Assembly (NCBI GenBank): GCA_964016885.1
Contig: OZ024743.1
Span: 188,232,001 to 188,296,000, forward strand
From: Eledone cirrhosa
Taxonomy: Eukaryota
DNA length: 64,000 nt
Reading direction: 5' to 3'
A program made the position numbers and the translations under genes. Below are positions 23,731 through 30,578 of this stretch, one piece after another. Every line of letters starts with the position of its first letter. The first letter of the stretch is position 1. The notes below the pieces were generated by a model. That model worked only from the letters and a program-made list of their open reading frames with translations, searched no databases and was not told where the DNA came from.

Positions 23731-25148
23731 CTAATGGCAGTTCTTCTCTCTTTCTCTTTCTTCACCCACCCCCTTTCTTTCTCTCTGAAATAGCTACCTT
23801 GCACTGTGAAAAGGTTTGTGAGGAATAGTTGAGTGAGGGCCTAGCAATATCTTCTTTTGGAAAAAAATCATTGGCTACAGAAACCATCTAAGAAGAACCT
23901 GATGTGCAGCATAGCATAGAATGGTATACTAATAAATAGTCTGTTATTGAATTTAGATGTATTCCTTACAAGACAAACAAATATTATGTTCATAATCATT
24001 TGTTTATCACATTTATTGACAAACACAAAGTTGTTTACATTTCAGGCAATATCCAATCAAATGGTTGCTGACACAGATGAATGATTTCTTTTATAATTCT
24101 GCCAAGGGATAGAAAAAGAGATAGTGCAAATGACCTTTTTTTGGACCCCCTTAGCCAGATGAAATTGCTGTAGTTGATATTCAATTTGAGAAGGTGTAAA
24201 GCTAAAACAGCTGTATGAACTCATTACTGTGAAGCTGTCAGTTGCTGTGTTGAAACTGAATTATTTCATAATCAACATAACCATTATTGATGATAAATTT
24301 ATAGGTGTTGAATATGTGTGTACTCAGCAACAATGTTCATGTTTTTGTTAATGCACCTTGGTTACCTCTGATATAAGACATTCCAGCCAGTTATAATTCT
24401 GTTGTTTCAATTTTACATTAATACATGCATTCAGTGCTACTTGTCAATGTACGCTACTACAGTCTTTCACTTAATGAAATTTGTTTTATCCTGACCATTG
24501 ACATGATATTGTAGGTCAGTGAGCTTTTCACCATGAGGAGTTAGCAAGTGATCATCATGTTCTGTGGAAACCATTGGATGGATACACAAAGAGAAGTAGA
24601 AGGAAAAAAGTTATATAGATAGCCTGCTGGAAGATAATGGATTGGATAGTGAGGGAGAGGTCAGAATGCTGATTATTGATAGAGAGCTTTGGATGGCATG
24701 TGTAAAGACATTTGGACAACCTGGCATTCGCATAGTTATATAAATAGTGCTTTTATTCCTTGTATCATCATGTTGCTAAATGATGCATGGGAACTTGTTT
24801 GACAAGCATTATGAAAATTCCTTCAGAGAATACAAGTTACCTTCCTTTGGGTATTCCTGTCAAAATACTATCTTGTTACTTAAATGAAACCAAGGTTGCT
24901 ACGCATGCCAGGCCATTAAGAATGTACATACCCTGAACAAAAGGATTTTGTCCAATACTTCCACTTTCAAACAAGCTAAATGGAATTGGGCAGGGTAATG
25001 CAGCATTTTTTATGACATTACAATTTAAGAATATGTACTTTTAGAGTTATTACATTAAATAGAAATGTTGTTATTTAGTTATGTTTGTGTTCTACCCAGA
25101 AAAATATATTTTATTTCTCACCTATAAAACTATCAATCAATTTAGAAC

Positions 25149-25523
25149 TGTAGCGGTTGTCTCCCTTGTTTTGATTAGGATCTAGACGGGAAGTGGAACC
25201 CTTTCTGCAACTTCCGGTCAGAGCCCTATAAAACTAACAACTTTAAGCTTCCTTTCTCTCTTTGCCTTTTCGGCACCAGGTCAAGAGCCTCTCATTGGGC
25301 TCCGCCATTAATTTGGCCAACAGGCGCCTGGCCTTAGCCAGGCGTCCTCTGCCAGCCGCGTTTGCCTGGCAATCAAAACGGTAACTACTAACTTTGCTTC
25401 ATTCTAACAACATCCTCATCTTTGACATGTCAAGTATACTATCTACCATTGTTAATTAAATATTATACACACAAACCATGTCTCGTTTTGTTACATTCAT
25501 ACAACCTCAGTAATCTCGCTATA
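25149..25523 (+). repeat. 5' LTR
   Basis: TGTAGCG...CGCTATA, with TATAAAA at ~25227. Direct repeat of 26919-27293. Confidence 0.95.
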
Positions 25524-25524
25524 T

Positions 25525-25556
25525 TGGTAACCCTGACGTGATACGAACACGCAGCC
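25525..25556 (+). promoter_or_regulatory. Extended primer-binding site complementary to the tRNA-Trp 3' end
   Basis: TGGTAACCCTGACGTGATACGAACACGCAGCC compared with the recalled reverse complement of metazoan tRNA-Trp(CCA), TGGTGACCCCGACGTGATTCGAACACGCAGCC. Confidence 0.85.
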
Positions 25557-26918
25557 GTTCATCGCTATAAGTGGTCACCCCCCCAAAAAAAAGAAAAAAA
25601 TAGCACATCTGGTTTTGTGAGTAACATTACGAATACACAGCAAATTTAGCGACAAACTATGAAAATACTCAAGGACACGCACACACGCACATGTGGAATT
25701 CGCACAGACAGACTTTTTCTCTCACGCATCAATTAACTGTCGCATTTCACCAATATATATATATATATGTTTCTCGTTTCTTACAACGAACACTTTCAAA
25801 ACAAAACAAAAAAAACAAAACATTTCACGATATATATACATGTTTCTCGTTTCTTACAACGAACTCTTTCAAAACAAAAAAAAAAAAAAAAAGAAATTCG
25901 ATATTCTTTAAAAAAAACATTTCAACAGGAACATATATTTTCGATGAACCATTGCCTTTTTTTTCATCGTTTTCTTCATCGTTCAAGTTTTTTTGTTTTT
26001 TTTCCCAAAGTTCACACCAATAATTATGCTGAGTGAAGCCTTTCTTTTTCATCATTGTCAATTTCAAAATTGTACTATCATTTTCTCGCGCGTTAGAAAT
26101 ATTATTTTTTTCAACCTTGTATTGGCACGTGTAGGCAGCACAAATTCTCGATTCACAGAGATGTCTCTACTCACAGACAGCCGCACGCCAGAGATAACAT
26201 TTCTCACCAGGGATTCTTCAGCCTTAAGCTATATTCTTCTATTTGCCGGTTTATAAATTTACTATGTAAATTTACCGTGGATAACCGCGCATTTATTAAG
26301 AATGCTTATTTCTCTGGTCGCTGGCCTCTTGACCCTTCCAGATCAACGCATTCTCAACATCGACCATCAACTTCGGCTGCTATTTCTAGCACTTTGCGCA
26401 ACTCATTTTTTCTAAAGAAAATTTTTTTACTGTGAATTTAAACACCGAATACGCTCACTCAGCGAGACAACAGCAGCAGCAACAGCAATATAACAGCAAC
26501 AGCAATACATCAATACAGCTTCACCAAAGCCAGAGAATTCATTTTTGCAGCACTCTTCCTGTGAGAAAATCCATTCGGAGGTTGGAAATTTCACGATATA
26601 CCACAGAACAGAAACCACCTGCATTCATTCTCTGGAGCACACTTTCTTTTCTGCTGTCATGTGATTGCACACCTGTGAACTATATTTTGAACTTTGAGCT
26701 CTTCTATTACTTTTACTTTATTACATTGTATCTTTGGGTGATGGATAGATGGATGTCCAGTCGTTCTCTGGCCAAGAGCGGTTGGCTACCTTGATATCTA
26801 TCATTGATTTTTCCAAACATTCTTTTGTCGTAATTTTCATGCCTGTTACAACATTCTCGCCAACTTGCTACATATTTTCATTTCGATTTTTATACACTAA
26901 AATTCTGGCGGGAGGTTA

Positions 26919-27293
26919 TGTAGCGGTTGTCTCCCTTGTTTTGATTAGGATCTAGACGGGAAGTGGAACCCTTTCTGCAACTTCCGGTCAGAGCACTATA
27001 AAACTAACAACTTTAAGCTTCCTTTCGCTCTTTGCCTTTTCGGCACCAGGTCAAGAGCCTCTCATTGGGCTCCGCCATTAATTTGGCCAACAGGCGCCTG
27101 GCTAAGGCCAGGCGTCCTCTGCCAGCCGCGTTTGCCTGGCAATCAAAACGGTAACTACTAACTTTGCTTCATTCTAACAACATCCTCATCTTTGACATGT
27201 CAAGTATACTATCTACCATTGTTAATTAAATATTATACACACAAACCATGTCTCGTTTTGTTACATTCATACAACCTCAGTAATCTCGCTATA
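26919..27293 (+). repeat. 3' LTR
   Basis: By eye it differs from the 5' LTR by two substitutions and one 4-nt loop inversion. Confidence 0.95.
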
Positions 27294-28104
27294 GAACTAA
27301 ACACTGGATTTTAAATTCTTGTGGTGTGGACACACAACAATGTCTCATATAATCAGTGATAAGCATAAATATGTTAACAATATTCAACAAAATTCAATAT
27401 TTTAAATGAAATGACATAGTAAAACAATATTGCTTTCAATTTAACAATCAAAATTTAGTCTGTTTATCATAATATATATTTATCTCCATTAGACGTTCAG
27501 GGCCCATGAATTCATTAATTGTATTTTAACATTAACTTAACTATTATTTTTAATATACTTTTATCGCTCCATATTCAATGCACTGAAAGAAATTTTAATC
27601 CTGAATATATTTACTTTATTTAAATTCTATCCAATTGTTAATTGTCAACAACACAGGTTATTCAGTATCTGAAATATATATTTTATTTACTCAAATTTCT
27701 ACTAGAATTATATTAAAGCCAGCCATTTATAAAACCCCATCAGCAAGACTCATTTAGTCTTGTATGTAATAGGCTGAATTTCCATATATACAAAGCTATC
27801 AATGTTTTCTTTCAATTTCACAGTTATATATTTTTTCTTCAGGGAAACAAAGAATGAGGAAGAAAAACACTAAAAATTTGTTTCAAAGAAAAACGATTAA
27901 CTGCAATATTTTATTGTTTGTTTCTTTTATGTGTTCTTTTTTAAAACTTGTTTTGTTTACATTCTCATAACAATTTGGTAGAAAGTTAATAATACAATTT
28001 CAATGATTCTTCTCTATTCTTAGCATTATTTTGGACTTGTGGGTTTTTTATTTATATATCTACACATGCACACATATAATAATTCACTTATAACACACAC
28101 ACAA

Positions 28105-28757: not shown

Positions 28758-28819
<62 letters not shown>

Positions 28820-28976
28820 TGGAATAAATGCTCTGAAATAGCGATATATATGTGAATATAGACATAGAATATTCGAAAATATTCTGTATGTTTATAATAA
28901 ACATTTTGAAGACCTAATCGCTATAGAATAGAATACGTCACGTATTACAATTAGATTCTCGATAAAAGCAAGGGAA

Positions 28977-29019
28977 GTAATCTACGCGTTTCATTCTTGT
29001 TAGAAATCTTCAGGACTAC
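28977..29019 (-). ncRNA. Minimal type I hammerhead ribozyme motif (array copy 1)
   Basis: Reverse complement reads gtagtc-CTGAAGA-tttctaacaagaat-GAAA-cgcg-TA-gattac. Confidence 0.8.
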
Positions 29020-29286
29020 ATATCCAGTGCTTTTATCGAGAATGACACAGCTAGAGACTTATAGAATACTTAGCTGTGTACAGGAACTGGTTTGAAAGAG
29101 CGGTTGCCGGTCCGGCAGAAATTAGAAATTGGAATAAATGCTCTGAAATAGCGATATATATGTGAATATAGACATAGAATATTCGAAAATATTCTGTATG
29201 TTTATAATAAACATTTTGAAGACCTAATCGCTATAGAATAGAATACGTCACGTATTACAATTAGATTCTCGATAAAAGCAAGGGAA

Positions 29287-29329
29287 GTAATCTACGCGTT
29301 TCATTCTTGTTAGAAATCTTCAGGACTAC
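29287..29329 (-). ncRNA. Minimal type I hammerhead ribozyme motif (array copy 2)
   Basis: Identical to copy 1, 310 bp further on. Confidence 0.8.
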
Positions 29330-29596
29330 ATATCCAGTGCTTTTATCGAGAATGACACAGCTAGAGACTTATAGAATACTTAGCTGTGTACAGGAACTGG
29401 TTTGAAAGAGCGGTTGCCGGTCCGGCAGAAATTAGAAATTGGAATAAATGCTCTGAAATAGCGATATATATGTGAATATAGACATAGAATATTCGAAAAT
29501 ATTCTGTATGTTTATAATAAACATTTTGAAGACCTAATCGCTATAGAATAGAATACGTCACGTATTACAATTAGATTCTCGATAAAAGCAAGGGAA

Positions 29597-29639
29597 GTAA
29601 TCTACGCGTTTCATTCTTGTTAGAAATCTTCAGGACTAC
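29597..29639 (-). ncRNA. Minimal type I hammerhead ribozyme motif (array copy 3)
   Basis: Identical to copy 1, 620 bp further on. Confidence 0.8.
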
Positions 29640-30071
29640 ATATCCAGTGCTTTTATCGAGAATGACACAGCTAGAGACTTATAGAATACTTAGCTGTGTA
29701 CAGGAACTGGTTTGAAAGAGCGGTTGCCGGTCCGGCAGAAATTAGAAATTGGAATAAATGCTCTGAAATAGCGATATATATGTGAATATAGACATAGAAT
29801 ATTCGAAAATATTCTGTATGTTTATAATAATTGTAATACGTGACGTATTCTATCCTATAGCGATTAGGTCTTCAAAATGTTTATTATAAACATACAGAAT
29901 ATTTTCGAATATTCTATGTCTATATTCACATATATATCGCTATTTCAGAGCATTTATTCCAATTTCTAATTTCTGCCGGACCGGCAACCGCTCTTTCAAA
30001 CCAGTTCCTGTACACAGCTAAGTATTCTATAAGTCTCTAGCTGTGTCATTCTCGATAAAAGCACTGGATAT

Positions 30072-30114
30072 GTAGTCCTGAAGATTTCTAACAAGAATGA
30101 AACGCGTAGATTAC
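30072..30114 (+). ncRNA. Minimal type I hammerhead ribozyme motif (array copy 4)
   Basis: Stem I GUAGUC/GAUUAC, core CUGAAGA at 30078-30084, stem II UUCU/AGAA, GAAA at 30099-30102, palindromic ACGCGU stem III. Predicted cleavage after GUA at 30108. Confidence 0.8.
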
Positions 30115-30381
30115 TTCCCTTGCTTTTATCGAGAATCTAATTGTAATACGTGACGTATTCTATTCTATAGCGATTAGGTCTTCAAAATGTTTATTATAAA
30201 CATACAGAATATTTTCGAATATTCTATGTCTATATTCACATATATATCGCTATTTCAGAGCATTTATTCCAATTTCTAATTTCTGCCGGACCGGCAACCG
30301 CTCTTTCAAACCAGTTCCTGTACACAGCTAAGTATTCTATAAGTCTCTAGCTGTGTCATTCTCGATAAAAGCACTGGATAT

Positions 30382-30424
30382 GTAGTCCTGAAGATTTCTA
30401 ACAAGAATGAAACGCGTAGATTAC
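30382..30424 (+). ncRNA. Minimal type I hammerhead ribozyme motif (array copy 5)
   Basis: Identical to copy 4, 310 bp further on. Confidence 0.8.
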
Positions 30425-30546
30425 TTCCCTTGCTTTTATCGAGAATCTAATTGTAATACGTGACGTATTCTATTCTATAGCGATTAGGTATTCAAAATGT
30501 TTATTATAAACATACAGAATATTTTCGAATATTCTATGTCTATATT

Positions 30547-30578
<32 letters not shown>

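Follow-up and report, generated by a model that had tools for sequence, protein, structure and literature searches.

We describe a long terminal repeat (LTR) retrotransposon whose primer-binding site (PBS) reads 32 nucleotides (nt) into tRNA-Trp and carries an A exactly opposite A58 of the tRNA. It lies in a 64,000-nt stretch of the Eledone cirrhosa genome (GenBank assembly GCA_964016885.1, contig OZ024743.1, positions 188,232,001 to 188,296,000, forward strand; hereafter the window), where it spans 2,145 bp of the forward strand (25149-27293), and it belongs to a young, non-autonomous family of about 500 copies. The joint explanation that we prefer, with a probability of about 0.75, is that a Ty3/Gypsy reverse transcriptase (RT) overran tRNA-Trp while making plus-strand strong-stop DNA, and that the product was integrated and then amplified.

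A primer-binding site extending into tRNA-Trp

PBS positions are numbered n1, n2 and so on, and position n pairs with tRNA position 77-n, a relation that holds as far as the D-arm. The PBS starts with TGG at 25525, 1 nt past the end of the 5' LTR (25523). Its canonical 18-nt part for tRNA-Trp(CCA) (25525-25542) is followed by an A at n19 (25543), where T is expected opposite A58, and then by 13 nt (25544-25556) complementary to tRNA positions 57 to 45. Against the host tRNA-Trp(CCA) gene L033 (loci carry L numbers) with CCA added, 29 of the 32 positions pair, the mismatches being n5 (G>A), n10 (C>T at a CpG) and n19. All 13 positions of n20-32 match the host tRNA-Trp (chance, 1.5e-8). The original prediction had given both the 32-nt reach and the A opposite A58, and both hold against the host gene.

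Host tRNA-Trp(CCA) is represented by 60 pattern matches; of 30 loci run through ARAGORN, 29 were recognized as Trp(CCA) genes. A tRNA gene or a tRNA-derived short interspersed element was considered as the source of the window segment and rejected: ARAGORN found no tRNA gene in the window, and the segment comprises only the 3' 32 nt of the tRNA, in antisense and with CCA. Whether plus-strand synthesis truly ends at 1-methyladenosine 58 (m1A58) has long been a matter of debate, most tests having been made in HIV or in vitro (PMC8599865).

A single founding event in the window family

The family was surveyed with a pattern anchored on the LTR end, which returned 491 copies with A19 and nine with another base. 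Seven of these nine are family copies with G, and the two with T come from another family, which is coding, so the family itself has 491 A, 7 G and 0 T at n19 (8 G with a second, family-specific pattern). As A19 is nearly fixed, the window records one founder event, which is what the original prediction had said a fixed A would imply. Among 30 copies taken in order from the position-ordered list of 491, LTR pairs were found in 26, with a median identity of 98.9%, and many copies have 4-bp duplications.

The mismatches at n5 and n10 had been remarked on as transitions, one of them at a CpG. This is correct, but both are family-wide states and not private decay. Among the first 100 listed of the 491 copies, both changes are present in 75, while 13 are tRNA-like throughout, 11 are changed only at n10 and one only at n5 (counted by eye), which rules out private CpG decay for n10. 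A host isodecoder gene with A67 likewise agrees with n10-T, and no tRNA gene with both changes was found among three matches. In a tree of 50 rows (six were dropped for short internal alignment and L063 was left out), copies with tRNA-type n5/n10 are scattered among those of family type. Such scattered reversion is expected if n1-18 are copied from the primer in each cycle, as has been discussed for ETn elements (PMC7472051), and since n19 never goes back to T while n5 and n10 revert, it seems that present-day synthesis mostly halts at n18. The six G19 copies in the tree are also scattered (six origins). Recurrent read-through inside the family was considered as their source and set aside, the 7 G standing against 3.5 expected (p = 0.07, not significant).

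Further variation was noted among family copies. Part of U5, some 8-15 nt upstream of the LTR end (~25508-25516 in the window), is unusually variable among L172-L201, the LTR pairs of which are 98-99% identical. In the deleted copy L063 a long PBS is joined almost directly to the polypurine tract, and in another, L210, an 18-nt PBS is joined to the equivalent of window position 26134 at a short shared word. L219 has lost n21-32, and its LTRs are 99.7% identical.

Over-reading elsewhere in the genome

As the window family represents one event, support for read-through and for a modification-linked error has to come from independent elements elsewhere. The proposal that the segment is a genomic fossil of RT read-through is supported by them; it is in these elements, not in the window family, that the evidence for recurrence lies. 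The genome was searched for long PBSs with a pattern that left n19 free and that, owing to a trailing letter, sees about three in four sites; the genome results are pattern samples and not a full census of tRNA-Trp PBSs.

Twenty-seven PBSs extend past n35, behind 16 upstream sequence clusters, and their n19 is T in 19, A in five and G in three. Mismatches are more frequent at n19 (8/27) than at the free positions n25-32 (20/216, p = 0.006). The same is true of transversions (8/27 versus 6/216, p = 2e-5), also after five rows sharing a junction were dropped (6/22 versus 4/176, p = 1.5e-4). The end points are clustered, with 21 at n36-42, none at n43-47 and six at n48-52. Position n40 stands opposite G37, and four of the nine copies that read past it err there, versus 4/72 at n25-32 (p = 0.004), the bases seen being C, G and A; L116 skips five bases across the G37 site. 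These nine copies were found with n40 free, L230 being left out because its pattern fixed n40, and the n19 count in this set (6/9) was not used, as two rows had been selected for non-T. One of the n40 searches taken alone gave errors in 3/6.

The combination of A19 and C20 seen in the window recurs separately in L109 and L117 (2/5 copies of one coding family) and in L230. Long extensions in this genome reach tRNA positions 25-29, at least three multi-copy families have a fixed extension, and among 20 extended regions two (L142 and L143) have the long PBS in an element with paired LTRs and Gypsy pol domains. Many junctions stop at n18. In one LTR family 3/9 PBSs are clearly extended and the remainder end near n18 (~5/27 extended by eye with a looser pattern), so a long PBS is not the normal state of that family. 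A coding family with T19 and an LTR end similar to that of the window family ends at n32, as does L098, also with T19, which suggests that synthesis may be halted at n31-33 for structural reasons, ahead of the anticodon stem.

Two side observations were made. Three copies of the T19 coding family (G000:C1:74761445, C1:303498668 and C3:83018561) have an extra G between n18 and n19, which is what one would expect of non-templated addition at the end of strong-stop DNA. Several events with C20 and A30 (L117, L119 and the coding family) imply a tRNA-Trp with G57/T47, which is absent from the 60 matches.

A probable signature of tRNA modification

Stops at n18, errors at n19 and n40 and ends near n39-40 together make up a signature of arrest and misincorporation, which weakens after conservative filtering. 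A 1-methylguanosine at position 37 (m1G37), as in vertebrate tRNA-Trp, is predicted for this tRNA by the present genome data. In PMC11770116, m1G37 gives a mixture of G, C and T reads, which the n40 bases C, G and A match, and m1A58 is read as T/G. When an A follows m1A, the C signal in vitro is low, with little dG (PMC4787781). A19 fits the T/G patterns, and m1A58 is in our view the likely cause of the A19 in the window, while RNA-templated over-reading is very probably the source of the extension as such.

The doubled LTR-end/PBS unit

Behind the tRNA copy (25557-25584) the element has another LTR end with a spacer and a decayed PBS, at a distance of 46 nt from the first. The copy of the LTR (U5) end with its 2-nt spacer (25557-25571; repeat unit, 46 nt) precedes the decayed second PBS, which runs into an expanded C run (25572-25584). 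The second LTR end has an 8-nt match to the LTR end of the element itself and matches the LTR end of copy L062 at 12/13 positions; 12 tRNA-matching bases are kept in the second PBS of the older copies L069, L179, L203 and L206. Reading 25557-25563 as an error-ridden tRNA copy up to n40 was rejected, as it needs two indels and the LTR-end match (12/13 to L062) is simpler. The unit is triplicated in L204, L205 and L129, and the 3' LTR of L204 carries the repeat unit and ends at the second LTR end.

In L104 (16 nt) and L088 (12 nt), too, the tRNA copy leads back into the LTR end of the same element, compared with 8 nt in the window, and fold-backs were found in L102 and L118. The young coding Gypsy family L212-L216, with open reading frames (ORFs) of up to 888 aa and a CHCC Gag, has a doubled LTR-end/PBS layout with a spacing of 43 nt, which follows A19 and three matching bases.

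These features can be brought together as follows. A Ty3/Gypsy RT making plus-strand strong-stop DNA would have overrun position 58 of tRNA-Trp (a predicted m1A), likely placing A opposite it and copying on to position 45, probably in one event. Bases 1-18 of the over-read strand would then have annealed to the minus-strand PBS, and its unpaired tail may have slipped back onto the fresh U5 end and copied the LTR end and PBS a second time, which would give the order LTR, long PBS, LTR end, second PBS. The molecule would have been integrated and subsequently amplified to about 500 copies by a putative helper element.

Separately, head-to-head junctions were observed (G000:C1:204387549, C1:204429083, C2:283227968 and others), in which an 18-nt PBS is joined to a reverse-complemented LTR end of the window family with a long PBS, the junction invariably falling at one point immediately behind n36.

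Weighing the explanation against its alternatives

Several observations weigh against overrun of a modified tRNA. T19, the correct base, is found in 19 of the 27 long read-throughs, and many of these may reflect the copying of tRNA without m1A58 rather than bypass. G19 fits the in vitro m1A patterns poorly, and the expected C19 was never seen among the PBSs examined. The host gene L165 (G000:C4:353469754), which lies in a tandem tRNA-Trp gene array and has A57/T58 and a D-stem change, could be the template of the A19/T20 cases, i.e. three of the five A among the 27 long PBSs. With these removed, mismatches at n19 fall to 3/19 versus 14/152 (p = 0.29), with p = 0.019 for transversions; with only G57 events retained, and the T copy of a mixed family kept, they are 1/15 (p = 0.74). 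There is no known blocking modification at the end point of the window extension (n32), and the ends at n48-52 may reflect fold-back of the anticodon stem, as in L118, rather than a modification stop. Several long copies have no 3' LTR within 9 kb and are LTR-plus-tail fragments, not whole elements. As to the slippage step, most of the 35 loci tested show neither LTR-end return nor fold-back, a clear return being seen only in L104, L088 and the window, and the three matching bases after A19 in L212-L216 could be due to chance. Finally, given the coding family that ends at n32 with T19, the window extension may have been inherited and A19 added later.

One further reading, compatible with the proposed origin, concerns the maintenance of the extension. 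Complementarity to the primer lies directly downstream of the PBS, as in a primer over-extension sequence, and selection might retain it either because over-read plus strands transfer in register or because a 32-bp primer duplex is formed. This is possible, if rather doubtful. A22, A23 and A25 have no variants versus about 5.6 expected at each, G occurs at n19 in 7-8 copies with six origins on the tree, all six family copies carrying n30-A have a tRNA-type PBS, and the fixation of an extension in at least three multi-copy families points the same way. However, n25-32 differ in 3/240 cells, which equals the internal background rate of ~1.1%, the excess of G19 is the non-significant one given above, and the n30-A copies may share descent. 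Moreover, re-copying should sometimes yield T19, which was not seen, and L219, with its nearly identical LTRs, does without n21-32.

Among the alternatives for the origin itself, the strongest is that RT read through an unmodified A58, giving T19, the extension perhaps being inherited from the coding lineage ending at n32, and that the A is an ordinary mutation fixed in the founder. The majority of T19 among the long PBSs (19/27), the coding family with a 32-nt match, T19 and a similar LTR end, and the lack of significance in the G57-only test all speak for it. Nevertheless, we consider it unlikely, as background transversions are rare (6/216) while A19 with C20 arose separately in L109/L117 and in L230, and no T19 copy exists among the roughly 500 family members, old ones included.

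The original prediction had itself named a variant tRNA with T58 as a source that would explain the segment: a primer with U58 has no m1A stop, and RT would have read on without error. One such host gene does exist in the tRNA cluster (L165), and A19/T20 is common among the long copies. However, the A57 of L165 would give T20, and the window has C20, so L165 cannot have templated it. No full tRNA-Trp gene with G57/T58 was found with strict patterns, in one search that sees about three in four sites, and the sole G57/T58 match (L230) is a CCA-ended copy joined to an LTR end, not a gene. As a U58 primer also cannot give G19 or the n40 errors, we regard this explanation as quite improbable. Least probable of all is capture at the DNA level, by gene conversion with a tRNA gene or by a LINE-made tRNA retrocopy at the LTR edge, for although tRNA-Trp genes are many and many long copies lack an internal region, all copies have the CCA end and start at the PBS position behind LTR-end-like sequence, and neither the error peaks at n19 and n40 nor the clustering of ends at G37 would arise from DNA templates.

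Structure of the window element

The limits of the LTRs were set by their alignment and by the 4-bp target-site duplication GAAC, found on the left at 25145-25148 and on the right at 27294-27297. The 5' LTR (25149-25523; 375 bp, with TG...TA ends) and the 3' LTR (26919-27293) are identical at 369 of 375 positions, and the 3' LTR is preceded by the polypurine tract and its spacer (26907-26918). With two LTRs bearing TG...CA-like ends, a target duplication, a PBS and a polypurine tract, the element is an LTR retrotransposon. Four of the six differences between the LTRs belong to a micro-inversion, which lies within a GC-rich hairpin, in its loop (~25333-25336 versus ~27103-27106).

The internal region (25585-26906) is non-coding, with no overlapping ORF of at least 150 aa, and the lack of coding capacity together with about 500 PBS pattern matches marks the element as non-autonomous. 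In blastn against six coding loci, similarity was limited to the PBS and a single match of 29 nt, and tblastx returned nothing. The CHCC Gag motif was found in 6/8 coding loci scanned, none of which is tied to the window element as its helper; the window element itself is without gag. Elsewhere in the window (28813-30557) lies a tandem array of near-identical 310-bp units.

Comparison with known systems

Elements of the CsRn1 clade of Ty3/Gypsy are described as having a tRNA-Trp PBS and a 4-bp target duplication (PMC2582038), and both are found in the window element. The coding elements with extended PBSs in this genome also resemble the clade, as they have a CHCC Gag and the order RT-RNase H-integrase. 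Unlike CsRn1, the window element encodes nothing, and the passages on CsRn1 in that source do not mention an extended PBS.

In mouse ETn/MusD elements the PBS seen most often differs from the primer at two positions, and reversion to a perfect PBS is scattered (PMC7472051), a situation much like that at n5 and n10 of the window family. The same review found no PBS changes at known tRNA modification sites, whereas in the present genome the errors lie beyond the PBS, at positions 58 and 37.

Lentiviruses and spumaviruses are said to carry a primer over-extension sequence past the PBS, up to about position 55 (PMC13191261; PMC8599865). As in the window, the genome is complementary to the primer beyond the 18-nt PBS; however, the window reaches position 45 and other elements of this genome positions 25-29. 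Over-long strong-stop ends, i.e. single molecules with primer tRNA sequence beyond the PBS, are also known from Ty1, and Colicelli and Goff (1986) reportedly cloned a murine leukemia virus (MLV) circle with tRNA sequence between the LTRs. Unlike the window family, these are laboratory intermediates and not amplified genomic families. A genomic record of integrated and amplified read-through was not found in the literature searched, from which subscription journals are largely missing.

The closest parallel is HIV-1, in which minor plus-strand strong-stop products have been reported to end at psi55, m5U54 or ms2t6A37, and products past position 54 are said to be unable to complete transfer or to integrate (PMC13191261; PMC8599865). 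Read-through past m1A58 is thus already known in HIV, and there, as proposed here, RT gets past m1A58 infrequently and then halts once more at position 37 of the primer tRNA. The new part, as far as the literature searched goes, would be the integrated and amplified genomic products. If our explanation is true, tRNA modification sites and the natural error pattern of RT can be read from genome assemblies alone, and doubled LTR-end/PBS junctions and primer over-extension sequences have a simple origin. Genomes rich in tRNA-Trp-primed Gypsy elements could plausibly serve as a fossil tRNA-seq, in which integrated over-read strong-stop DNAs preserve the stops and errors made by RT in vivo at m1A58 and G37, with slip-back to the U5 end rescuing over-read strands and the long PBS acting as a possible landing pad that tolerates read-through. 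In contrast to the HIV-1 products, those described here sit in the genome: natural retrotransposons appear to have left dozens of integrated over-read products, one of which founded a family that now numbers about 500 copies.
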